DNA of 64,000 nucleotides from Patescibacteria group bacterium (lineage in GTDB: Bacteria; Patescibacteriota; Patescibacteriia; Patescibacteriales; JBAZCA01). Below the pieces are notes generated by a model. That model ran no database searches and was not told the DNA's origin. It was given only the letters and a program-made list of their open reading frames with translations. Of the stretch, positions 8,674-49,897 are shown in pieces (the stretch's first letter is position 1; the number at the start of each line of letters is the position of its first letter). The stretch covers positions 21,864-85,863 of the forward strand of contig JBAZCA010000005.1 in NCBI GenBank assembly GCA_041671125.1, given 5' to 3'. Both the position numbers and the translations under genes were made by a program.

Positions 8674-8702
8674 GCTCGGGGTAGTGGATGAAGTTAGAAA
8701 TG

Positions 8703-9617
8703 CTATTTATTAAAATTATATGACTGCTTAATCAGATAAAAAACATTATCAATCTGATCTTCTTTTGTTATTTTTACTTCATAATCACCATTTCCCCAGT
8801 GTCCAACTGGTTTAGGATTAAGCAAATCTCTAGCGATATTCTTAGGATCATCTAATTTTCCACTAGGGACATTTAAAAACACTTTAATATCCTTGCTACG
8901 AATTTCTACGTCAACAAAATTAGTCGCCATTTTATAGGCAATATATAATTTTTTTGGCTCCTCAATAATATCGGTATCTAGGGCGGTAATTTTTTCTCTT
9001 AAAGCATAAAATATTCTTTTTATTTCCTCTTTTTTACCTCTTAAATGATCTTCTAATTTATATTGCTTCTGTAATTTTTCACCTATTTCTTTTTCTTTCT
9101 TGGAATTTTTATAAATTTGAGTTGTGCTTATTCTAACCTTTTCTTGCTTTTCTAAATCTAATTGCAACAGATCATCTTCGTATAAACCATATTTTAACAA
9201 TTCAATTTTTATCGGCAATATTTCGGCCGTATCCAAATCAAATTTATTATAACTCTCTGCTACACAAATCACGCGCGGAGATGCCCAATCAATTTCGCAT
9301 TTAATATCTTTATCCCTGCATAACATTTCAAAATTGGCTCTATGATCCAAAAGCCATTTTAAATAAGACAGTCCCTGATTAATTACATTATCATTTTGCC
9401 CTTTTTTATATTCAATAATGCAAGGTGAGCCATTTTTATCTACCCCAAGCGTATCAATTCGTCCGCCGGAAGTTGTGCTAAATTCAGAGGCCAAAAAGTT
9501 AATATTTAAAATCTCGCTAAGATTATTTTCAAATAAATTTTGGATATCTCTTTCTTTTAAAACTTCGCAAGAAGATAACTTTTTTGCGTTTTTGTCCTTG
9601 ATTTTAAATAATGGCAT
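8703..9617 (-). CDS. NucS/DUF91-like PD-(D/E)xK nuclease with DUF5655-like C-terminal domain
   Basis: GGRIDTLGVDKNGSPCIIEYKKG..QGLSYLKWL gives a D...ExK core. The C-terminal part (YIAYKMATNFVDVEI..GHWGNGDYEV) resembles DUF5655. Confidence 0.6.
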   Translation of the reverse strand: MPLFKIKDKNAKKLSSCEVLKERDIQNLFENNLSEILNINFLASEFSTTSGGRIDTLGVDKNGSPCIIEYKKGQNDNVINQGLSYLKWLLDHRANFEMLCRDKDIKCEIDWASPRVICVAESYNKFDLDTAEILPIKIELLKYGLYEDDLLQLDLEKQEKVRISTTQIYKNSKKEKEIGEKLQKQYKLEDHLRGKKEEIKRIFYALREKITALDTDIIEEPKKLYIAYKMATNFVDVEIRSKDIKVFLNVPSGKLDDPKNIARDLLNPKPVGHWGNGDYEVKITKEDQIDNVFYLIKQSYNFNK

Positions 9618-9621
9618 AAAA

Positions 9622-10341
9622 TTATAAATTATTAGCTAATTCTTCGTAAGCAGTTATTATGAAAGGCATTTGAGGAACTATAGTCTCCATTTTAACATTT
9701 ACTAAGGGATTATGGGCGGCCGTATCTCCTAAAAATTTTATTCCTTTTAATTCGCTTGCAGTTTTCGGCAAAATAATGTGCCTATTATTTATTTTTTCTT
9801 TACTCGCAATATCAATCATTTTTTCCAAGCCAACAAGGAAACCAGGCTTACTAATATCTTCAATTTTAGCTTGTATTTCTTGTTTGGAAAAAACTAAAAG
9901 AATTAATTTTTCTAATATCTTTCTTAGCAGAAATGCGGTACAGGTACCGCTACAGCCAAAGCTATGTTCCAGATCTTCAAATTCAATTTTAAAATCTTTC
10001 TTTAATTTATCGGTTAACTCGGCTGAGAATAAAGAAGCATCAGATATTTTCTTCTTATTTTTTAACGGATTCTGCAAATATTTAACATGATTTATTCCTA
10101 CTTCAGTGATTTCGATTACTCCATTGTTGGATTTAACCCAATTTTCTTTTTGAGCATGATATAACTGGCTTGGATTATACAATCTCTTAAATTGTGTTTT
10201 AGGCCATTCCTTTTTTAATGCTCTAACTCCTGTATTATTTTCTATTTGTCCATCGGTTAAAAAATAAATTAAGGCAAGAATTTTTTCTTTCCCCGACATC
10301 TTACTTAATGGCAGACAGGATAAAAAATTAATTTTATTCAT
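9622..10341 (-). CDS. wHTH-like N-terminus plus DUF4145-like C-terminal domain protein
   Basis: N-terminus is alignable with the 10346-10735 product. C-terminus has LRKILEKLI...LKGIKFLGDTAAHNP, typical of DUF4145. Confidence 0.45.
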   Translation of the reverse strand: MNKINFLSCLPLSKMSGKEKILALIYFLTDGQIENNTGVRALKKEWPKTQFKRLYNPSQLYHAQKENWVKSNNGVIEITEVGINHVKYLQNPLKNKKKISDASLFSAELTDKLKKDFKIEFEDLEHSFGCSGTCTAFLLRKILEKLILLVFSKQEIQAKIEDISKPGFLVGLEKMIDIASKEKINNRHIILPKTASELKGIKFLGDTAAHNPLVNVKMETIVPQMPFIITAYEELANNL

Positions 10342-10345
10342 TTTT

Positions 10346-10735
10346 TTACTTTAAAATATTCTCCCATTCTTCTGTTAATTGGTACATGCCATATTCATGC
10401 GTATCAACCCAGCCCTTAGTCTTGGCCTCATTGGGATAGAAATCGTTATAATTTCCAAGTAGTTTTTTTGTTGACATTTTTGCCCAAAGACTCTTTATGT
10501 CCGTCATGGAAATATCTTTTTCAATATCGCCCTTTGCTAAAAAAGCAACCATTAAAACAAATTTCTTTGGTCCACTCTTATCGCTGGCATATCTTGATAT
10601 ATAAGCCCTTGGGTTTAGATCGAATTTAATTAATTCGTTGTCAGTATTAAAATGTTGCTGTTTTTTGGTGTTAAAAACTTTTTTTTCTAATTCTAATATT
10701 CTTTTTTCTAACTCATTTATTTTTTGATCAGACAT
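10346..10735 (-). CDS. Small coiled-coil plus wHTH-like protein (Mrr_N-like pattern)
   Basis: KFVLMVAFLAKGD...NEAKTKGWVDTHEYGMYQLTEE. Paralogous to the N-terminus of the next gene. Confidence 0.4.
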   Translation of the reverse strand: MSDQKINELEKRILELEKKVFNTKKQQHFNTDNELIKFDLNPRAYISRYASDKSGPKKFVLMVAFLAKGDIEKDISMTDIKSLWAKMSTKKLLGNYNDFYPNEAKTKGWVDTHEYGMYQLTEEWENILK

Positions 10736-10747
10736 AAATTTATAGTA

Positions 10748-11398
10748 TTATTTTTTAGAATAAACCCAAATTTTACCCATGCCGGCTTCGGTATCTATTT
10801 TTTTTCTTGATAAAATATCGTTTCTCACTAAAGGGAGAAGATAAGACGGCAAACTGGATAGCTTTAACGATGTAACTCCTTTCTCTATTAATTTTTTATA
10901 AATTTCGGTGCCATTCTTGCCAGTATTAAAAAATCCCTCTTCATTTAGTTTAAGTAAAAAATCTGTAACTGATGACTTTCTGGGCTTATTATTTTTTTTT
11001 ACACTTTTAGGGGAGTTACTTTCCGAATTAGGATTTTCAAAGTATGCCTGTAAACTAAAAATCCCTTGAGGAAGAATAAAATATTTTCCCTTTTGAGATT
11101 CAACTTTATACTCGTCTTTTAATGATTTAAGTATAGGTCTTAGTGTGTTTCCCTTAATACCTAAATTTTTTTCTAATTCAAATAGAGATACTAAAATTTC
11201 ATTTTTTTCGAGCAATTTCCATGCTTCTTTGCCGCATAAATATAATAAAATACGTTCTCTGTTGGGTAGCTTATTGCTCTGTTGGGTTAAAACCACTGAA
11301 TTTCCTTGCTTCACGAGATTTACGTTTCCCGTAAGCACTTTATCTAATAAATCCTCAGTAACCTCCGTGTTATTAATAATCAAATTTTTTAAAGCCAT
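10748..11398 (-). CDS. Protein with two wHTH-like modules, first gene of the operon
   Basis: NRERILLYLCGKEAWKLL..LEKNLGIKGNTLRPILKSL..KGKYFI, then a second module VTDFLLKLNEEGFF..GKIWVY. No catalytic motif seen. Confidence 0.4.
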   Translation of the reverse strand: MALKNLIINNTEVTEDLLDKVLTGNVNLVKQGNSVVLTQQSNKLPNRERILLYLCGKEAWKLLEKNEILVSLFELEKNLGIKGNTLRPILKSLKDEYKVESQKGKYFILPQGIFSLQAYFENPNSESNSPKSVKKNNKPRKSSVTDFLLKLNEEGFFNTGKNGTEIYKKLIEKGVTSLKLSSLPSYLLPLVRNDILSRKKIDTEAGMGKIWVYSKK

Positions 11399-11749
11399 AT
11401 TTTTTGAGTTAGTTAAATTATATTAAGAGTATATCAGAAACAGAAACATTGTCAAGTATTTTTCAATAATATCAACTTTAGTGCTAATTTAAGACAAAAT
11501 ATATTATTAGATATTTATATTTTTACAAATGTTTCTTAATATTTATTTGTTATTGAATGTTTAGTATAATAATTTATAGATTATATTTATATCTATAAAT
11601 ATAATAAAACATAATAATATTAAGTTGTTTGTTATTAAATTAGTTTTATTTAGCTATAATTAGACAAAATATATATACAAGTAATTATATGTTTATTAAA
11701 AGTTTATCATCTAAACTTTTTACTGTCAAATTTTCTTACATATCTAATT
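11399..11749. promoter_or_regulatory. Extremely AT-rich control region upstream of the four-gene operon
   Basis: About 350 nt, almost devoid of G/C. Direct repeats taatt(t)a(a)gacaaaatatat at 11486-11506 and 11656-11677. tttgttattRaat occurs twice (about 11545 and 11625). Confidence 0.4.
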
Positions 11750-11751
11750 TA

Positions 11752-11790
11752 AAAACGACCGCCCCCTCTGACGAGGGGTGGTCGTTTAAA
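11752..11790 (-). terminator. Terminator after the R-M operon
   Basis: cgaccgccccctc tgac gaggggtggtcg hairpin with a T-run on the minus strand. Confidence 0.6.
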
Positions 11791-11828
11791 ATTTTATCAT
11801 GCTTAGGGTGGAAAATTAATAAACTACA

Positions 11829-12473
11829 TTATTGTGCCATTTCGAAAATCTTACTTACAAGCCCTTTTCTCGCATAAAACGCCCTTGTTATCGGCCGTCT
11901 TTCGCCGGTTCGGAGATTTATTCCGCCAGTTCCTTTTGTTCTCGCTTGTATCCACTTGCCGTCTTTACCAGTTAATCTGCTAAAACCCTCTTTTATAAGT
12001 TTCGCCCGGATAAAATCATAATCAGCTTTAATCTCTTTTATTAGATCGTCATTTTCGGCAAAATCTAGGCTAGTTACCTTTAGTATCTCAGCTTCTTCCG
12101 AATTTTTACCATGCCACATAATGGCGCAAAAAACAATTGATTTTAATTTAGCCCAGCAATGGCTTTCGAAAAATGAATGCTTTTTTAACTCCTCGGGATT
12201 GATCATGGTAATGGCCATGGTTTCTTTCGGGATGAGTATACCTTTTACATAATAAAAGCTCACCGATTTCAATTCATAGGATAAACCGTTAGGAGCTTTG
12301 GAAACATTATTTTGCAAACCGGCCAGTCTTTCCAAGATCAAACCTTTCCAGCCTTTGTTTTGTTTGCCGGTTTCATAAGTAGTAATACCGTATTCAACGG
12401 CCAGCTTCATCAAATCTTTACCGATATACTTTTTTAAATTTTGTATCGCTACTGTGCGGGTAACAATTTTCAT
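11829..12473 (-). CDS. MutH/Sau3AI/MvaI-BcnI superfamily restriction endonuclease
   Basis: NKGWKGLILERLAG..SYELKS parallels the MutH segment KGWIGVLLEIWLG..GVELKT (from memory). C-terminal ..RAFYARKGLVSKIF parallels MutH RGFYLKKNFT. Confidence 0.65.
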   Translation of the reverse strand: MKIVTRTVAIQNLKKYIGKDLMKLAVEYGITTYETGKQNKGWKGLILERLAGLQNNVSKAPNGLSYELKSVSFYYVKGILIPKETMAITMINPEELKKHSFFESHCWAKLKSIVFCAIMWHGKNSEEAEILKVTSLDFAENDDLIKEIKADYDFIRAKLIKEGFSRLTGKDGKWIQARTKGTGGINLRTGERRPITRAFYARKGLVSKIFEMAQ

Positions 12474-12483
12474 GTAAAAAAAG

Positions 12484-13338
12484 TTATTTACTGCTTCCCA
12501 AGTCCTTCAATCTTTTTATTGATAAATCAAGGTATTTTTTTTCTAAGTCAATCCCGATGAATTTCCGGTTATTGAGGTAAGCGGCCAATCCGGTTGTGGA
12601 TGATCCGGTAAAGGGATCCAAAACAGTATCGCCCTTGTCTGTGCTTGCCATAACAATTCTCACTAATAAATCAATTGGCTTTTGGGTTGGGTGTTTGCCG
12701 AACTTCTTTTCCGCCGGTTTAGGCGTTCCCATAGCCCAAACACTCCTCATCTGCAATCCCGGCTTCTTTAAGAAGTCATCCGGCCAGTTACCGTCTTTCA
12801 TGGCCTTGTAATTAAATTTATGTTTGCCTTTTTTGTCTTTTCTCGCCCAGATAAGCGTTTCATGGCTGGCGGTAAAAAATCGACAACTTAAATTCGGGGA
12901 AGCGTTGGGCTTAAACCAGACAATATCATTTAGAATATGAAATTTATTAACCTGCAAGGCAAAACCGCATTGATAAATTGAATGGTAGGTTCCGGAAATC
13001 CAGATCGTTCCGCCGGGCTTTAATACTCTATGGCAGGCCTTTATCCATTCAATATGAAATTCAAAATCTTTCTTTAAACCGTTGCTAACGTCCCATTGGC
13101 CTTTATTGACGCTTACCATTTTTCCGCTATCACAAGTAAAACCGCCATTAGATAAAAGATATGGCGGATCGGCAAAAATCATGTCAATGGAATCTTCCTT
13201 GACTTCCTTATTTAAGAAATCAATAGAATTGCCTAAATATAATGAAAAATCGTTATGTTTGAAGTAGGGTTTGCTCATACTGAAATAATATCCTCTTTTA
13301 CTCATGCCGTCAATCATTTTTCTATAAAAACCGGCCAA
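12484..13338 (-). CDS. Beta-class N6-adenine (or N4-cytosine) DNA methyltransferase, DpnA-like
   Basis: Motif IV IFADPPYLLSNGG lies before motif I VLDPFTGSSTTG. NLSCRFFTASHETLIWARK and GKHPTQKP are also present. The listed start is TTG 13338; ATG 13278 (MSKPYF..) is more likely. Confidence 0.85.
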   Translation of the reverse strand: MAGFYRKMIDGMSKRGYYFSMSKPYFKHNDFSLYLGNSIDFLNKEVKEDSIDMIFADPPYLLSNGGFTCDSGKMVSVNKGQWDVSNGLKKDFEFHIEWIKACHRVLKPGGTIWISGTYHSIYQCGFALQVNKFHILNDIVWFKPNASPNLSCRFFTASHETLIWARKDKKGKHKFNYKAMKDGNWPDDFLKKPGLQMRSVWAMGTPKPAEKKFGKHPTQKPIDLLVRIVMASTDKGDTVLDPFTGSSTTGLAAYLNNRKFIGIDLEKKYLDLSIKRLKDLGSSK

Positions 13339-13689
13339 AATTGCCTTTAATATAGGCTTGTTTTTTATTTCTGAAAAAGTTTACGTGAACTTATAAGAAT
13401 ATGGATGAATTATGATTATTTAGGGTGGGAAAAGTTTATTCCCAATTTTCCCCATGCTAAGCTGGTATGCTTTTTTTAACTTTGCCTTTTAATAATCTTT
13501 CGTTAAGAATAAACATTTTGGCGGACCGGTTGCCCGACCGGCCGCCAAAATGTTTGCTTACGATATTTAAGGCAATTTTAAAAGCAAAAGGTTCATCTCT
13601 TAACTTGATTATAATCACACATCTAACGAAAAATTCTCTTATTTTCTCTAATATTGGGGTATTCCTTTTTTCGGACATATTTTCGAAAT

Positions 13690-13878
13690 ATGGAATTTAC
13701 TAACGAGCAGTTAGATCAGATTATTGCTCTTTTCCGGGATGAGTTAGGCGTAGAAATTGACCGGGCCGAAGCCCGGAGGCAAGCCACATCCCTAATAAAT
13801 TTGATTAAGCAGGTTTACCGGCCAATGAGCAAAAAAGACTTTGCCAAATATGTTGCCAAGGTCAAGAATTACCGATAA
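13690..13878 (+). CDS. Small hypothetical protein upstream of the recombinase (possible directionality factor)
   Basis: MEFTNEQLDQIIALFRDELG.., 62 aa from the ATG at 13690. Followed by hairpin 13889-13921. Function is a guess. Confidence 0.3.
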   Translation: MEFTNEQLDQIIALFRDELGVEIDRAEARRQATSLINLIKQVYRPMSKKDFAKYVAKVKNYR

Positions 13879-13943
13879 AATGTAAGAGCTTACCCGGCTC
13901 AATAAATGGGTCGGGTAAGCTAAGATTACGCCTTATATTACCT

Positions 13944-15614
13944 ATGAATAAACCAAACTCCACAATTCGCTATTTCGCCTATGTCAGAAAGTCCACCGAG
14001 GGCGAGGAACGGCAGGCTTTATCAATTGAAAGCCAAAAGGACAAAGTTTGGGAAGTTTTTCCGGATTTGGAGATTGTTGATATTTTAGAAGAAAAACATT
14101 CGGCTTTTAAGCCATATAACCGGCCGGTTTTTGATGAGATGATTAAAAGGATAAGAAAAGGGGAGGCTACCGGGATTATTGCCTGGCACCCGGATCGGTT
14201 AAGTCGGAATGAAATAGACGCTTCCACGATTACTTATTTAGTCCGGACGGGCGTTATTCATGATTTAAAATTCGGCTCATATAATTTTGATAACTCACCC
14301 GAGGGAATAATGATGTTACAGTTGGCTTTGTCGCAGTCGCAATATTTTTCTTCTAAGCTGGGAAAGGACGTAAAAAGAGGTTTAGAGAAAAAGGTTAGTT
14401 TAGGCTGGCTTCCCGGTGTTGCGCCGGAAGGCTATTTAAACGATATGAGGCTGGAAAAAGGGCAAAGAACGATTATCACCGACAAGAAGCGGGCGGTTTT
14501 ACTCAGGCGGGCTTTTGATATGTTTTTAACCGGGGCTTATTCGGCGCAAGAGGTTTTTAACAAGTTAAATAATGAATGGGGCTACCGGACAAGAAAAAAG
14601 AAAAAAATGGGCGGTAAGCCATTATCAAGAAGCCTTTGGTATAAAATACTCAATAATCCTTTTTACGCCGGTGTTATCGTCTATAACGGCAAGGAAAGCA
14701 AAGGCAGGCAAAAGCCGATAATAACTATTGATGAATTTAATAGAATTCAAGAATTATTGGGCGGTAAGGGTTGCATGAAAAAACCGGGAAAAAGGGATTT
14801 TACTTTTACCGGGCTTTTTCGTTGCGGAGTTTGCGGTTGCCTAATTACCGCCGAGCATAAAACCAAATATATTAAAAGCCAAAACAAAGTTAAAGGCTAT
14901 GATTATTACCATTGCACCCATAAGAAAAAAGAAATTGATTGCCGGCAAGGGTCGGTTTTGGAAGAAGATATTAAGCATGAGATATTATTAAAATTGAAAG
15001 GAATAGAAATTCATCCGAAATTTCTTGAATGGGGACTTGAATATTTGGACAGCGTAAAAGAAACGGAAAATGAGAAAAAGAAAATAATTGATACTAATCA
15101 AAAATTCCAAACAGCGGAACTGGAAAGCCAGCTTTCCGAATTAACCATGATGAGGGCGAAAAAATTAATTGATGATGAGGGATTTATAAAAGAATCGGAT
15201 AAGCTGAAAAAGCAAATCAAAGATTTGAAAAAAGGCGAAGAAAAAAATGATCTTGAAGCGGATATTAAATTTGCCAAAGAAAAATTATCTTTTTGCGTTT
15301 TTGCTTTTAAGAGATTTATTGAGGGCGGAAAAGACGCCCAAAAAGAGATACTCGCCCAGTTAGGCTCGAACCGGGAAATAATCAATAAAAATGTAGTGAT
15401 TACGCTTAATCCGTGGCTTATTCCGATACACGAGAACGCCGAACAGTTTAACGCCGAAATGAAGAGGTTAGAACCGGCTTTAACCCTTACAAATACAACA
15501 CAAAAAGAGGCTCTCGCCTCTCTTCGTTCACGTTGGCTCGGGGACCTGGATTCGAACCAGGATAAACGGCTTCAAAGGCCGCTGTCTTGCCGTTGGACGA
15601 TCCCCGAAATATGA
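13944..15614 (+). CDS. Large serine recombinase
   Basis: N-terminal resolvase domain YVRKSTEGEERQALSIESQ and GIIAWHPDRLSRN. Recombinase domain, zinc ribbon CGVCGC..YYHCTHKKK, coiled coil. The last 23 codons run antisense through tRNA-Gln. Confidence 0.85.
   Translation: MNKPNSTIRYFAYVRKSTEGEERQALSIESQKDKVWEVFPDLEIVDILEEKHSAFKPYNRPVFDEMIKRIRKGEATGIIAWHPDRLSRNEIDASTITYLVRTGVIHDLKFGSYNFDNSPEGIMMLQLALSQSQYFSSKLGKDVKRGLEKKVSLGWLPGVAPEGYLNDMRLEKGQRTIITDKKRAVLLRRAFDMFLTGAYSAQEVFNKLNNEWGYRTRKKKKMGGKPLSRSLWYKILNNPFYAGVIVYNGKESKGRQKPIITIDEFNRIQELLGGKGCMKKPGKRDFTFTGLFRCGVCGCLITAEHKTKYIKSQNKVKGYDYYHCTHKKKEIDCRQGSVLEEDIKHEILLKLKGIEIHPKFLEWGLEYLDSVKETENEKKKIIDTNQKFQTAELESQLSELTMMRAKKLIDDEGFIKESDKLKKQIKDLKKGEEKNDLEADIKFAKEKLSFCVFAFKRFIEGGKDAQKEILAQLGSNREIINKNVVITLNPWLIPIHENAEQFNAEMKRLEPALTLTNTTQKEALASLRSRWLGDLDSNQDKRLQRPLSCRWTIPEI
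15534..15607 (-). tRNA. tRNA-Gln (anticodon UUG), CCA encoded
   Basis: Hand fold: acceptor TCGGGGA/TCCCCGA, D-arm GTC-CAACGGCAA-GAC, anticodon stem GCGGC/GCCGT with loop CTTTGAA, T-arm CCTGG-TTCGAAT-CCAGG, discriminator G, then CCA. Closely parallels E. coli tRNA-Gln. Confidence 0.9.
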
Positions 15615-15629
15615 TTTACCTAGTTACAT

Positions 15630-15734
15630 AAAAGGCCGCTGTCCCCGCCTCTCCGGCGGGCAGGTTGCCTTGTTGGACCTGCCCGCAATGCTGCGCTATG
15701 CTTGCATAGCGTTGCAGGCGGGCGATCCCCGAAA
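15630..15734 (-). pseudogene. Duplicate of the tRNA-Gln 5' half interrupted by two GC-rich hairpins
   Basis: cgatccccgaaat (15722-15734) and aaaggccgctgtc (15630-15642) repeat 15598-15610 and 15578-15590. The D-loop remnant ttgccttgttggac sits between inserts of 21 and 44 nt. Confidence 0.5.
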
Positions 15735-15775
15735 TTATCCAAAACAATCCCGGAACCCCGGGATTTTCTATTTAA

Positions 15776-15804
15776 ATATTAGGATAGTTTTACTGCAGTG
15801 TCAA
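15776..15804 (-). promoter_or_regulatory. Sigma-70-type promoter reading toward the tRNA-Gln locus
   Basis: Minus strand reads TTGACA, a 17-nt spacer (ctgcagtaaaactatcc), then TAATAT. Confidence 0.55.
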
Positions 15805-25917: not shown

Positions 25918-26511
25918 ATGCCAAACAAGCTGGAAAAATATTTAAAAAAACGCGACTTTAAAAAAACGCCCGAACCAAGGGGCGGAAAAGTTGTCGTTGG
26001 TAAAAAAGCTGTTGAAAAGCCAAAGGAGATTGCGAAGAAAAGTGAGGCCGGGAAAAACCGGTTTGTCATCCAGAAACACGACGCTTCGCATCTGCATTAT
26101 GATTTCCGGCTGGAGATCGGCGGCGCGCTCGCGTCCTGGGCCGTGCCAAAAGAGCCGTCCGAAGACCCGGGCGTAAAACGGTTGGCCGTCCGGGTTGAAG
26201 ATCATCCGCTTGAATATATGAATTTTAAAGGGGTGATTCCTGAGGGGGAATACGGCGCCGGAACCGTGGAAATCTGGGACAAGGGGAGTTACGCGAATTT
26301 GCTTCTCGCGTCAATGGAAACGTCCTTAGAGAAAGGGCATCTGGCCGTGAACTTAAAGGGTCGTAAATTAAAAGGCGGATTCGCCTTAATCCGCCTTCGC
26401 CACCCCTCCGCCGGAGGCTCCGGTGGCGCGCAGCAAGGCTACGGCGGACAGGCCCGGTTTAGGAAAGAAAAAGGCAAGGAGCTTTGGCTTTTGGTTAAAA
26501 TGAGGGATTAA
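25918..26511 (+). CDS. Stand-alone LigD 3'-phosphoesterase (PE) domain protein
   Basis: FVIQKHDASHLHYDFRLE..GALASWAVPK..RLAVRVEDHPLEY..EGEYGAGTVEIWD. Confidence 0.8.
   Translation: MPNKLEKYLKKRDFKKTPEPRGGKVVVGKKAVEKPKEIAKKSEAGKNRFVIQKHDASHLHYDFRLEIGGALASWAVPKEPSEDPGVKRLAVRVEDHPLEYMNFKGVIPEGEYGAGTVEIWDKGSYANLLLASMETSLEKGHLAVNLKGRKLKGGFALIRLRHPSAGGSGGAQQGYGGQARFRKEKGKELWLLVKMRD
26398..26457. repeat. GC-rich mini-element inside the LigD-PE coding sequence
   Basis: ccgccggaggctccggtgg hairpin plus gctacggcggacaggcccgg. The latter is near-identical to actacggcgggcaagcccgc in map (49369-49388). Confidence 0.55.
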
Positions 26512-40775: not shown

Positions 40776-40830
40776 TTCCCATAACTCATAACCCATGTGC
40801 GGGTTGAGAGTTACGGGTTATGAGAATATT

Positions 40831-40866
40831 ATGAATATCAAAAAAGGCGACACCCGCTTTCGCTAA
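40831..40866 (+). promoter_or_regulatory. 11-codon upstream mini-ORF duplicating the first 7 codons of rplX
   Basis: atgaatatcaaaaaaggcgac versus the rplX start atgaatattaagaaaggtgac: 18 of 21 nt identical, and all 3 differences are synonymous. It then runs into GC hairpin cccgctttcg..cggcgggcaag and a stop. Confidence 0.35.
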
Positions 40867-40912
40867 AAGCTTCGGCGGGCAAGAGGTAAAAATTTTTACA
40901 GAGAAAATAAAT

Positions 40913-41236
40913 ATGAATATTAAGAAAGGTGACAAAGTTAAGATATTGACCGGAAAAGATAAGGGCAAGACCGGAAAGGTTCTGCAGGTTTTTTTGTCCC
41001 GGGAACGGGCGAGCGTGGAAGGCATAAACCTTCTTATAAAGCATTTGCGCCCGAGGAAGCAGGGGGAAACCGGCCAGCGGATTGAATTTCCCGCCCCGCT
41101 GAATGTTTCAAACTTGATGGTCGTCTGCCCTAAATGCGGCAAACCGGCCCGGGTCGGCCATAAAATAACCGTATCGCCGGACGGCAAGAAAAAGAAATTC
41201 AGGGTTTGCAAGAAATGCGACGGAATAATTGAATAA
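40913..41236 (+). CDS. rplX: 50S ribosomal protein L24 (with CxxC..CxxC zinc ribbon)
   Basis: KOW motif KKGDKVKILTGKDKGKTGKV. CPKCG..CKKCDG. Confidence 0.92.
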   Translation: MNIKKGDKVKILTGKDKGKTGKVLQVFLSRERASVEGINLLIKHLRPRKQGETGQRIEFPAPLNVSNLMVVCPKCGKPARVGHKITVSPDGKKKKFRVCKKCDGIIE

Positions 41237-46396: not shown

Positions 46397-47323
46397 ATGT
46401 CCATTATTTCCATTCTAATCACGACCGCCGGTTTAACGCTTTTTGAAATCGTCTCCAGCATTGACAACGCCATAATTAACGCCGAGGTGCTTAGCACCAT
46501 GCAGCCGAAATATCGGCGTTGGTTTTTGGTCTGGGGAATATTATTCGCCGTCTTCGTTGTCCGTGGGCTACTCCCTTGGGCGATCGTCTGGGCGACGGCG
46601 CCGGAACTCGGATTTTTAGGGGCGCTTACCGCCACGTTCTCTTCAGACCCGAAAGTCATAGAGGCAATTGAATCCTCCGCTCCGGTGCTTTTAGTCGGTG
46701 GCGGAATTTTCCTTATTTTCCTTTTTTTCCACTGGCTTTTTATTGAGGAAAAGCATTACGGTCTTATCGGCGAAAAATTTTTTCATTCGCAGGGAGTCTG
46801 GTTTTACGCGGTGGTGTCCATAATCTTGGCGGTTGTCGTCTGGGCGGCTTTGCACGAAAATCCTTTAATGGCTTTCGGGGCGGTGGTCGGCTCCACCGCG
46901 TTTTTTATCACCCACGGCTTTAAGCAGAACGCCGAGCAGGCGGAAAAACAGCTTTTAAACAAAGGAAGCGGTCTTTCAGACATCAGTAAAATATTATATC
47001 TTGAAGTGATCGACACGACATTTTCCATTGACGGAGTTTTAGGCGCTTTTGCTTTTACCCTGTCAGTGCCGATAATTTTATTCGGCAACGGCATCGGGGC
47101 GTTCGTCGTCCGGCAATTAACCGTTGGCAATATTGACCGGATAAAAAAATATATGTTTTTAAAAAACGGGGCCATGTATTCAATCTTTTTCCTTGGCCTT
47201 ATCATGGTTTTGGACAGTTTCGGTTTTCATATCCCGGCCTGGCTTTCCCCGGTCGTTACTTTCGGCGTAGTCGCTTATTTTTTTTGGAAGTCAAAAATAG
47301 CGATGAACAGTAATGTTAAATAA
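46397..47323 (+). CDS. DUF475 (TerC-related) integral membrane protein
   Basis: LFEIVSSIDNAIINAEVLSTM and later DTTFSIDGVLGAFA are the two DUF475-type repeats. Start taken at ATG 46397. Confidence 0.6.
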   Translation: MSIISILITTAGLTLFEIVSSIDNAIINAEVLSTMQPKYRRWFLVWGILFAVFVVRGLLPWAIVWATAPELGFLGALTATFSSDPKVIEAIESSAPVLLVGGGIFLIFLFFHWLFIEEKHYGLIGEKFFHSQGVWFYAVVSIILAVVVWAALHENPLMAFGAVVGSTAFFITHGFKQNAEQAEKQLLNKGSGLSDISKILYLEVIDTTFSIDGVLGAFAFTLSVPIILFGNGIGAFVVRQLTVGNIDRIKKYMFLKNGAMYSIFFLGLIMVLDSFGFHIPAWLSPVVTFGVVAYFFWKSKIAMNSNVK

Positions 47324-48029
47324 AAATAATTATATGGGAAATTTTGACAATTTACCGAAGGCTGGCGCCGGGTTCCGTATAAGCGGAACGCCCGGCAGTT
47401 TTCAAAGGAAATTTAGGTCGGCAATTAAGTATGGCGATTTAAAAAACCTGAAAGATAACGAAGCCGCCATAACAAAGGAATTTGAAAACAGAATGCCGGC
47501 TTTAAGAAAAAGAGGCGGATTAACCTGGCAAGAGAGGCGGAGCGCATATTTTAGTATTTTAAAAAGGGACAAAAAACTAACCTTTGGTGACAAGAAAGAA
47601 GTGAAAAAATTGTTGGAGAGTTATGCTAAAGGACAAAATTCATCCGGCGGAGGCATTCTTAAAGGATCGCAGACTGCAGAAAAAAAGTCTTCTTCCGGTT
47701 CGTTTTGGGGAATTCTAGGTAGTAAAAAGAAAGAAGAAAAACCGCCGGTTAATCCGGCCATAAGGGCTTATGATCCGGAAGCCATGGCCACCGCCGGCCG
47801 GGTGGGTTACAATCCTGATCAAAGGGGCTTTGCCGGATCCGGGACGGGAAGCGTCAGCTCGCAAGAAATGAGCGGAAGCATGAAATTCATCAATAACCAG
47901 CCGAACCGGTACGCGAAAAAAGGGACCGGTAATCCGGCTTCGCTTTTTGCCCTCGGCGGCAAGTCCGGCGCTTCTTCGGCCAGTCAAGGGAAAGCCTTGG
48001 GACCAAATCGGTTAAAGCCGATTATTTAA
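47313..48029 (+). CDS. Hypothetical protein, Gly/Ser/Lys-rich
   Basis: 238-aa ORF (alternative start 47334). No recognisable motif. Confidence 0.4.
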   Translation: MLNKNNYMGNFDNLPKAGAGFRISGTPGSFQRKFRSAIKYGDLKNLKDNEAAITKEFENRMPALRKRGGLTWQERRSAYFSILKRDKKLTFGDKKEVKKLLESYAKGQNSSGGGILKGSQTAEKKSSSGSFWGILGSKKKEEKPPVNPAIRAYDPEAMATAGRVGYNPDQRGFAGSGTGSVSSQEMSGSMKFINNQPNRYAKKGTGNPASLFALGGKSGASSASQGKALGPNRLKPII

Positions 48030-49024: not shown

Positions 49025-49897
49025 ATGATTCATGTGAAGACCAAAGAGGAAATCTTGGCTATGCGCGAGGGCGGAAAAATACTCGCGAGAATTCTTCATG
49101 CCCTGGCGAAAGAAGTTAAACCTGGCGTTACGACCGGTTATCTTGAAAACCTTGCCTATAAACTAATAACAGAAGCCGGCGGCAAGCCGGCTTTTAAAGG
49201 TTATAAGTCAGGAGCCGGCGGCCGGGGTTTTCCGACCGCGATTTGCGCTTCAATAAACCATGAAGTCGTCCACGCTCCGGCTTTACCTCCAAGAGTTTTG
49301 GAAGAAGGCGATTTAATCGGTATTGATATTGGCATGGAATATCCCGCTTTCGTTCCGCCTGCCGGCGGAACTACGGCGGGCAAGCCCGCTATGTCCGGAG
49401 CCGTAAAAAACTTTCCGAAGAACAGGTATTCGGCTTCCGGCGGTTTTATTACGGATATGGCTTTGACGGCCGGAGCCGGGGAAATCGGTGAAGAGCGGAG
49501 AAAGCTCCTGGAAGTAACCAAAAAAGCCCTAGAACTCGGTATCGCCGAGGTAAAACCCGGCAAGCGGCTTTCCGATATCGGCCGGGCAATTGAAAATTAT
49601 GTTAAGAAAAACGGTTTTTCCGTTGTTCGGGCGTTAGTCGGCCACGGGGTCGGCTACGAAGTGCACGAAGAGCCGCAAATCCCGAACTACCTAGCGAAGG
49701 AAAAAGATTTTAAAGATGTTGTTTTAAGACCAGGCATGGTGATCGCCATTGAACCGATGGTAAACGCCGGGGAGCATGATGTTGAATCAGACGCCGACGG
49801 GTTTACGATCGTAACGAGCGACGGAAGCATGAGCGCGCATTTTGAGCATACGGTCGCGGTGACGGACCGGGGGCATGAAATTCTTACTTTAGAATGA
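49025..49897 (+). CDS. map: Methionine aminopeptidase type I with about 32-aa insert
   Basis: GIDIG..[insert]..GFITDMALT, VGHGVG, IEPMV, EHTV metal-ligand contexts. Confidence 0.9.
   Translation: MIHVKTKEEILAMREGGKILARILHALAKEVKPGVTTGYLENLAYKLITEAGGKPAFKGYKSGAGGRGFPTAICASINHEVVHAPALPPRVLEEGDLIGIDIGMEYPAFVPPAGGTTAGKPAMSGAVKNFPKNRYSASGGFITDMALTAGAGEIGEERRKLLEVTKKALELGIAEVKPGKRLSDIGRAIENYVKKNGFSVVRALVGHGVGYEVHEEPQIPNYLAKEKDFKDVVLRPGMVIAIEPMVNAGEHDVESDADGFTIVTSDGSMSAHFEHTVAVTDRGHEILTLE
49340..49445. repeat. GC-rich mini-element region translated inside map
   Basis: cccgctttcg..ccgcctgccggcgg..ctacggcgggcaagcccgc. The same end motifs occur in the rplX leader (40852-40882) and the same core in the LigD-PE gene. 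Confidence 0.55.

Follow-up and report, generated by a model that had tools for sequence, protein, structure and literature searches.

A probable in-frame copy of a short palindromic repeat in a Patescibacteria methionine aminopeptidase gene

Why are the first two aspartate metal ligands of a Patescibacteria methionine aminopeptidase (MetAP) 43 residues apart, when 11 residues separate them in Escherichia coli? The gene, an intact type 1 open reading frame (ORF) of 290 aa at 49025–49897, lies in a 64,000-nt stretch of contig JBAZCA010000005.1 from a Patescibacteria group bacterium, hereafter the window (all features are on the plus strand unless marked otherwise). A sequence-only reading had noted the unusual spacing, which alignment confirmed, had given the extra peptide correctly as PAFVPPAGGTTAGKPAMSGAVKNFPKNRYSASG, and had taken the whole segment for a GC-rich DNA-level element tolerated in frame. 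We found that the segment consists of two parts. A 42-nt part (49343–49384) is probably a short, GC-rich palindromic repeat that occurs in Patescibacteria, present here in frame and similar in kind to repetitive extragenic palindromes (REPs) and Rickettsia palindromic elements (RPEs). The idea of a tolerated DNA-level element holds for 49343–49390 on the strength of non-coding copies, covarying stems, and filled and empty sites, and fails for 49391–49444, where the alignments point to the protein level.

The palindromic unit and the older extension of the MetAP loop

The ORF matched PF00557 (E=1e-44) and has the pita-bread fold and Peptidase_M24 domain of the peptidase M24A family. Its AlphaFold2 (AF2) model (predicted local distance difference test [pLDDT] score of 93) gave Foldseek TM(target) values of 0.96 to Thermotoga maritima MetAP (1o0x) and 0.91 to E. 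coli MetAP. All five metal ligands (D101, D144, H207, E243, and E274) are present, in columns that were invariant in a 36-sequence alignment; D101 (49325–49327, in GIDIG) and D144 (49454–49456, in ITDMA) align with E. coli D97 and D108. The alignment columns between these aspartates hold 59 residues in the window and 27 in E. coli, i.e., 32 extra residues, and the phmmer alignment to 1o0x splits at residue 107/140. The named top homologues are all MetAPs of Patescibacteria/Parcubacteria.

The palindromic unit spans 14 codons (P107–K120, PAFVPPAGGTTAGK) and is much richer in GC than its surroundings (30 of 42 nt, 0.71), as is the slightly longer covariance model match at 49340–49387 (0.69). The GC richness claimed earlier is thus strong for this unit and modest for the flagged interval as a whole (0.59, against 0.51 for the MetAP gene and 0.44 for the window). 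In the centroid fold, the left arm CCCGCT (49343–49348) pairs with GGCGGG (49375–49380), and the hairpin scan and the fold both place between them a perfect hairpin, GTTCCGCC-TGCC-GGCGGAAC (49352–49371), with an 8-bp stem and a 4-nt loop, which is the variable module of the element. The right arm is followed by a conserved unpaired tail, CAAG, together occupying 49375–49384. A second CCCGCT, read from the sequence at 49385–49390 (P121–A122), directly repeats the 6 nt of the left arm and is either the host target sequence or microhomology; owing to this repeat, the boundary of the element is uncertain by 6 nt, and 49349–49390 is equally possible. The GCGGG may also pair with the second CCCGC(T) around a CAAG loop, and the minimum free energy (MFE) fold takes this pairing.

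The element is open in the MetAP frame and is therefore read through as 14 residues; if it is translated, peptides spanning EYPAFVPPAGGTTAGKPAMSGAVK are expected. Excising the 42 nt restores a loop, EYPAMSGAVKNFPKNRYSASGG, that aligns with the ordinary Patescibacteria type. Residues P107–K120 had pLDDT values of 50–60 in the AF2 model, and these 14 Pro/Ala/Gly-rich residues are predicted to form a disordered surface loop at the tip of a beta-hairpin, leaving the catalytic residues untouched. Compared with other map genes (hereafter, L-numbers denote comparison DNA loci and P-numbers comparison proteins), the nucleotide identity of the element codons was 64% with L082 and 57% with L166, compared with 83 and 75%, respectively, for the rest of the gene.

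The following segment (49391–49444; M123–G140, MSGAVKNFPKNRYSASGG) is not element DNA. Alignment of 120 homologues and 80 metagenomic map loci showed that, in most Patescibacteria MetAPs, this hairpin loop is already longer by about 17 residues and follows the pattern E[YW]P....[KR].F..P.N.[YH]S..GG[FY][FY]TDM; dozens of distant MetAPs keep ..[KR].F..[PK]N.[YH]S..GG[FY].TDM. The standard loops of 78 nt have the GC content of their gene context and folding z-scores around 0 (range −2.05 to +1.68). In the window, this segment is 88% identical at the nucleotide level to the closest orthologue, L082 (83% for the rest of the gene), and residues 131–140 had a pLDDT of 92. On the evidence of these alignments, 49391–49444 is an ancient protein-level loop extension specific to Patescibacteria, which is conserved in distant Patescibacteria MetAPs that lack the DNA motif. 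Protein-level conservation in distant lineages lacking the motif, the outcome that would speak against a DNA-level element, was therefore found for about half of the interval. Across the phylum, the hairpin loop accommodates 0–39 extra residues, and its conserved extension may bear on the docking of the enzyme at the ribosome.

The longest loops behave differently from the standard ones. Six of the seven longest had folding z-scores of −2.1 to −4.2 (the seventh, L089, scored −0.7), and five of the seven, L082 and L158 being the others, exceeded their gene context in GC by 0.05–0.15. The L158 loop (1138–1227; z −4.2) contains an 11-bp perfect stem, ACCCCGCAAAA/TTTTGCGGGGT, around about 37 nt, with a sequence unrelated to the other elements.

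As the sequence-only reading had suggested, orthologues with and without an insert were aligned, and near-identical MetAPs were found to differ in the presence of the element. Outside the loop, P0039 (loop YPASSAGKPAKSTRGTSGLLVDG) and P0089 (loop YPAKEG) have 97.2% identity. Their genes (L170 and L147, respectively) are about 90% identical at the nucleotide level and align colinearly, interrupted only by a single 51-nt gap in the loop, where the filled site begins CCCGCCTCTTCGGCGGGCAAG-CCCGCTAAG. Further filled/empty pairs were P0008/P0023, P0026/P0045, and P0013/P0056 (94, 88, and 84% identity outside the loop, respectively). The filled loops of L170 (436–465) and L169 (3196–3225; both approximate) also contain, besides the element, a further ~30 nt (S/V-T-R-G-x-S-G-L-L-V) that their empty-site relatives lack. 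On a rough neighbour-joining tree, element-bearing MetAPs were dispersed among short-loop forms, which tentatively suggests several gains or losses of such DNA in the loop.

A repeat family with coding and non-coding copies

The family follows the pattern [CT]CCNCC-TWCG, a variable inner hairpin, and then GCTWCGGCGGRCARG. Its 6-bp outer stem, CCCGCY/RGCGGG, covaries to TCC.../...GGA and CCCTCC/GGAGGG; the interior has symmetric TWC internal loops; the centre takes one of two forms, a small conserved loop (CGCYAARGC) or a variable perfect hairpin nested within; and the unpaired tail is CARG. The short form, with the 6-bp outer stem, measures 30–31 nt, within the 20–40 bp that define REPs as GC-rich imperfect palindromes. 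In eight short copies, 92% of the cells were paired, with double changes between CG and UA and between GC and AU, and the observed covariation score was reached in 1 of 500 shuffles.

A covariance model, R1, was built from these eight copies, one of them from the rplX spacer of the window, and was searched against 0.88 Mb of Patescibacteria DNA; its E-values are, by design, only approximate. Matches outside the training set were the window MetAP (49340–49387, 30.2 bits, E ~3e-4), a second gene of the window encoding a LigD 3′-phosphoesterase (LigD-PE; 26387–26455, 30.8 bits, E ~2e-4), and L116, L126 (twice), L130, and L084. The control comprised 1.3 Mb of mostly other bacteria, obtained by a profile search of genome contigs with the full-length MetAP alignment, in which the matches listed were mostly non-Patescibacteria MetAPs; there, only the two training sequences scored and no new copies appeared. 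A 30-nt consensus matched at 8 sites across 2.2 Mb, and reversing or complementing the sequence as a control left no match. The left arm lay at most 75 nt upstream of 9 of 12 right-arm matches, where about 0.6 would be expected by chance according to our own estimate. The right arm alone, with one mismatch allowed, was not enriched (12 matches versus 9 in the reversed sequence), and the relationship among the MetAP, rplX, and LigD-PE copies is significant only when left arm, right arm, and hairpin are scored together.

The copies elsewhere occupy varied contexts. L126 (7.2 kb) has two intergenic copies with compensated stems (CCCTGCC/GGCAGG and CCCTCC/GGAGGG), one just past a stop codon and the other just ahead of a start codon. 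Short forms were also found 3′ of a gene in an intergenic region of L165 (TCCACCTTCGCTTAAGCTTCGGCGGACAAG), adjoining a tRNA in L116 (TCCTCCTACGCCAAGGCTTCGGCGGACAGG; two copies in 8.9 kb), and in frame in an L151 ORF with P-type ATPase motifs (CCCGCCTTCGCCAATGCTACGGCGGGCAAG), where the copy is read PAFANATAGK, in the same frame as in MetAP. L169 (8 kb) carries two copies, one in MetAP (43.2 bits) and one intergenic (40.4 bits), and the MetAP copy of L170 was also matched. Long forms, which keep the arms and nest an extra hairpin, comprise the window MetAP copy, the window LigD-PE copy (26390–26452), L116 4496–4538, and the L084 MetAP copy. The non-coding contexts rule out a purely protein-level origin.

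L171 contains a tandem cluster of at least three copies adjoining a tRNA gene. A 72-aa database ‘protein’, P0121 (L171 520–680; …PFGKASADEPAFAKAWANESTFAKASAGK…PAFAKAPAGG), present on four contigs in four ENA assemblies, arises from reading through three or more of these tandem copies and is probably a spurious gene call. It was the only one of three candidates with E<=10 when a database of 5.8 billion proteins was searched with the element peptide, a search whose word index is ill-suited to so short a query. No Rfam family matched any copy.

Within the window, a non-coding copy of the short form lies in the rplN–rplX spacer (CCCGCTTTCGCTAAAAGCTTCGGCGGGCAAG, 40853–40883; 43.7 bits, as a training sequence). 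This spacer is 137 nt long in the window and only 14 and 25 nt in the closest syntenic relatives, L082 and L084, respectively, both of which lack the element. The MetAP copy shares with it CCCGCTTTCG (49343–49352 and 40853–40862) and CGGCGGGCAAG (49374–49384 and 40873–40883), i.e., 10 and 11 exact bases in the same order. The sequence-only reading had already linked MetAP to this leader and to the LigD-PE gene, and the DNA words that it quoted all occur where it placed them, within one base. The links proved real, as R1 scored both coding copies; the evidence is architectural, however, and does not lie in the 18-mer CTACGGCGG[G/A]CA[A/G]GCCCG (49371–49388 and 26439–26456) on which that reading had leaned. 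A 16/18 match elsewhere in the window was found for 66 of 125 control segments of 106 nt with GC of at least 0.54 (53%), and a shuffle test of the 18-mer pattern is circular, the pattern having been written from its two matches. The two exact words shared with the rplN–rplX spacer are less likely to arise by chance than the 18-mer.

The first 21 nt of rplX (ATGAATATCAAAAAAGGCGAC, MNIKKGD) are present twice in 40831–40933, and the second copy, identical at 18 of 21 positions, opens the real gene at 40913. The element copy lies in the 61 nt separating them, together with an AT-rich palindrome, GTAAAAATTTTTAC. The upstream copy of the rplX start is now read as MNIKKGDTRFR-stop, and the insert is absent from orthologues. 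From the sequence, it looks as if DNA had been inserted into the 5′ end of rplX and a duplicated start had rescued the gene. Another hairpin, CATAACCC...GGGTTATG (40786–40825), which had no Rfam match, lies directly 3′ of rplN, ahead of the duplicated start.

The LigD-PE copy (26390–26452, with a nested 32-nt inner hairpin) lies near the C-terminus of its ORF (25918–26511) and begins where the PF13298 match (residues 52–159) ends; the alignment to PDB entries stops at residue 161. Its left arm is 48 nt upstream of its right arm. The copy is in frame, but its frame differs from that of the MetAP copy, and the reported reading of the same DNA as YGGQAR here and as TTAGKP in MetAP was reproduced.

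A weak candidate for a minimal copy, CCCGCCTCTCCGGCGGGCAGG (15644–15664), adjoins tRNA-Gln and closely resembles the minimal copy in the L170 MetAP, although its R1 match (15641–15667, 19.2 bits, E 0.17) is not significant alone. It falls in a strongly structured GC-rich stretch with multiple hairpins (15640–15770, folding z −5.0). The region around it (~8700–15800) resembles an integrated island with a DUF5655 protein, a MutH-like endonuclease (11832–12473, minus strand), an N6/N4 DNA methylase (12487–13338, minus strand), and a large serine recombinase (13944–15611, plus strand) abutting tRNA-Gln (15534–15607, minus strand).

Around MetAP itself, the gene order is the conserved secY, terC-like, ORF without a Pfam match, adk, map, ruvX, and recO. 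The ORF in the terC-like/adk interval (238 aa, 47313–48029), for which the Pfam scan gave no match, is of low complexity, rich in Gly/Ser/Lys, and found at the same place in syntenic relatives. In ENA, map is carried by a 198-kb Patescibacteria contig (ERZ27249449 k141_201856).

Origin of the insert: weighing the explanations

We consider it likely that 49343–49384 is an in-frame copy of this repeat. The family is REP/RPE-like and previously undescribed, the literature searched having yielded no description of palindromic repeats in Patescibacteria or of this MetAP loop. The element would be nearly neutral under selection, a selfish or hitch-hiking sequence copied and pasted from other sites in the genome, with a transposase or microhomology/template switching at CCCGC as candidate means, and it may persist in an essential gene because the MetAP loop is among the few places where insertion is harmless. 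The non-coding copies probably act, by analogy with REPs, as RNA or DNA hairpins at gene boundaries or transcript ends.

Such DNA evidently finds a permissive site in this loop, which in Candidatus Uhrbacteria independently carries a different palindromic repeat. In that MetAP (L095 10091–10201; the same in L002 and L097), CCCTCACC...TCTCCCTCAGGGAGAGGGGAGGGTGAGGG is read as ...PSPSGRGEGEG, and the surrounding 20 kb hold three or more further copies (L095 14114–14200, 19599–19619, and 20184–20204), two of them followed by an A-run.

The close relatives of the window MetAP record what may have happened after insertion. The inserts of the window, L166 (78% amino acid identity), and L082 (86%) share their position and comprise 14, 14, and 13 extra codons, respectively. 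The hairpin of L166 has decayed (MFE −25 versus −43.6 in the window), that of L082 has been remodelled to another perfect palindrome, GCCGCTCG|CGAGCGGC, at the same place, and L084 has CCCGGCCA-GAA-TGGCCGGG at the same place; in L084, a second, 33-nt hairpin is nested in a short-form copy. Because close orthologues have different perfect palindromes at the same spot, DNA-level processes appear to renew the palindrome repeatedly. We considered separate, recent insertions into the window, L166, and L082 and rejected them, as position and length coincide; rapid divergence and remodelling after an ancestral insertion are preferred.

Several points weigh against the repeat-copy explanation. The sub-clade of the window is read as one older insertion that later diverged, rather than as fresh mobility, and the window holds few copies (three clear and one weak in 64 kb). 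No Y1/RAYT transposase (PF01797-type) was found among the 30 window ORFs scanned with Pfam, the window being only 64 kb of the genome, and the non-coding copies showed no clean target-site duplication. The left arm of the LigD-PE copy overlaps the conserved residues IRLR and may be partly fortuitous. The patterns and R1 were partly derived from copies that they then recovered; independent support comes from the matches outside the training set, the zero-match controls, the covariation, and the filled/empty pairs. Finally, the peptide [AS]xGKP is retained with synonymous third-position variation in the distant MetAPs L102, L130, L137, and L167, so selection may since have acted on part of the element at the protein level. 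In this respect, the DNA-level and the protein-level reading do not exclude each other, as the sequence-only reading had them do.

A more specific mechanism would make the element a structure-guided mobile hairpin that homes repeatedly to the Tyr-Pro-Ala codons (TAT-CCC-GCN) of the MetAP loop through pairing between its GCGGG arm and a CCCGC target, its peptide A-x-A-G-K-P having since been exapted in some Patescibacteria lineages. Such homing would account for the flanking repeats that covary with the stem, namely CCCGC(T) in the window, CCGGT...CCGGT in L167, and those of L170 and L169. The flanking CCCGC(T) repeats could equally mean target pairing, microhomology-mediated capture, or the mere alternative GCGGG-CAAG-CCCGC hairpin, and we regard homing as a speculative and fairly unlikely account. 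If true, it would represent a new insertion mechanism in ultra-small genomes, either transposase-independent or driven by an unknown enzyme.

An origin of the whole insert as a lineage-specific functional protein loop, comparable to that of streptococcal MetAP1a, is unlikely. On this account, the loop evolved by ordinary substitutions and slippage, and the likeness at the DNA level stems from the self-complementarity of GC-rich Pro-Ala...Ala-Gly-Lys-Pro codons (CCCGC/GCGGG). The C-terminal half of the insert is clearly such a loop; the streptococcal insert lies in the same hairpin, and its structure (4km3) was the sole non-eukaryotic MetAP match of phmmer to be aligned unbroken here; and the GKP motif is kept through synonymous changes in distant lineages. 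The MetAP core even offers a chance precedent, as AGGKPAF (49173–49193) is encoded by a perfect 8-bp hairpin, AAGCCGGC-GGCAA-GCCGGCTT, that resembles the AGKPA part of the element. For 49343–49384, however, the account is largely refuted by the non-coding copies, which in several genomes have covarying stems and a conserved loop. The same element also occurs in unrelated proteins and in another reading frame, its presence varies between MetAPs that are 97% identical outside the loop, and the element part outpaces the gene in divergence and is predicted to be disordered. The resemblance to the AGGKPAF hairpin raised the further idea that the element was derived from it, which we judged a codon-driven coincidence given the non-coding copies.

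It is very unlikely that the hairpin is instead a functional mRNA (or DNA) structure selected in map, such as a translational pause, processing, or regulatory site, with its sequence free as long as pairing is kept. The different perfect palindromes at the same place in the window, L082, and L084 fit this explanation, as do the folding z-scores of the element site against dinucleotide shuffles (−1.7 on the plus strand and −2.6 on the minus strand) and the availability of the alternative GCGGG-CAAG-CCCGC pairing. However, most Patescibacteria map genes have no hairpin there, including near-identical ones (97% protein identity outside the loop and ~90% nucleotide identity), the L166 hairpin has decayed, and the same element occurs at unrelated loci. 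A fold-back chimera at a GC-rich hairpin is almost certainly not the source of the insert: although the window derives from a short-read metagenome assembly (ENA ERZ27249449) and palindromes are prone to such artefacts, the reading frame is intact, independently made assemblies (JGI, ENA, NCBI, and Logan) contain related inserts, with two sources each for P0001 and P0003, and the element sequence is conserved across genomes, unlike fold-back artefacts.

Taken as an in-frame repeat copy, the insert provides an undescribed repeat family with a usable covariance model and natural filled/empty pairs in an essential enzyme. It accounts for odd Pro/Ala/Gly/Lys-rich peptides (…AKASAGKP…, …YGGQA…) in proteins of the candidate phyla radiation (CPR). 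For annotators and phylogeneticists, it means that the length variation of the MetAP loop is partly selfish-DNA noise.

Comparison with known inserts and palindromic repeats

Among MetAPs, the nearest parallel is the type 1a enzyme of streptococci (PDB 4KM3; Arya et al. 2013, PMC3790777), which has a 27-residue insert, located in the region occupied by the N-terminal extensions of types 1b and 1c, and retains methionine specificity. As in the window, the insert extends the loop of the same beta-hairpin in the catalytic domain of a type 1a MetAP. The two differ in that the streptococcal insert has an ordered conserved motif, [de]-V-[st]-[kr]-L-[de]-F-[nq]-X5-K, and no repeat-DNA origin is described for it in PMC3790777. 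The motif is absent from PAFVPPAGGTTAGKPAMSGAVKNFPKNRYSASGG, the two inserts are not similar in sequence, and phmmer with the loop region of the window found no MetAP match in the PDB.

REPs, including intragenic ones, fall into two superfamilies defined by an unpaired GTAG or CGTC tag (Di Nocera et al. 2013, PMC3733652). The Patescibacteria elements resemble them as GC-rich imperfect palindromes of 20–40 bp with a short unpaired tail, in their positions downstream of ORFs, in their clusters and opposite-orientation pairs (L116 and L171), and in that some copies are intragenic and encode about 10–30 residues. They differ in that no terminal GTAG or CGTC is evident and the conserved unpaired tail is CA[AG]G, in the lack of a RAYT among the 30 window ORFs scanned, and in a copy number per genome that is probably low. 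CTAC, the reverse complement of GTAG, is confined to the internal loop, where some copies have it and others have CTTC. Membership among the GTAG- or CGTC-tagged REPs is unsupported, as the tag is absent, and the element was assigned to neither superfamily.

The behaviour in protein genes is closest to that of the RPEs, or ‘protein-coding palindromes’, which, in the accounts relayed by PMC3733652, are short palindromes found both between genes and in frame in proteins (Ogata et al. 2002 Genome Res; Claverie & Ogata 2003 TiBS). As far as those accounts extend, the two share intergenic copies alongside in-frame copies in unrelated, often essential, genes, an extra surface peptide that leaves the host protein intact, and reduced genomes. 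Here, the in-frame copies are those in MetAP, LigD-PE, and the P-type ATPase, and the non-coding ones lie in spacers and beside tRNAs. The present element differs in its Patescibacteria host, its sequence family, and its shorter length (~21–63 nt). RPE-1, for instance, is longer than 100 bp. The element was set apart from the RPE families by host, length, and composition rather than by sequence comparison, and on these grounds homology is not expected. It further differs in being modular, with conserved arms and a swappable inner hairpin, and in recurring in the same loop of one enzyme in several lineages. Most records of palindromic repeats that invade protein genes and are translated come from Rickettsia and a small number of REP-rich genomes; the MetAP copy would extend the phenomenon to Patescibacteria/CPR, a group with some of the smallest and most gene-dense genomes known.

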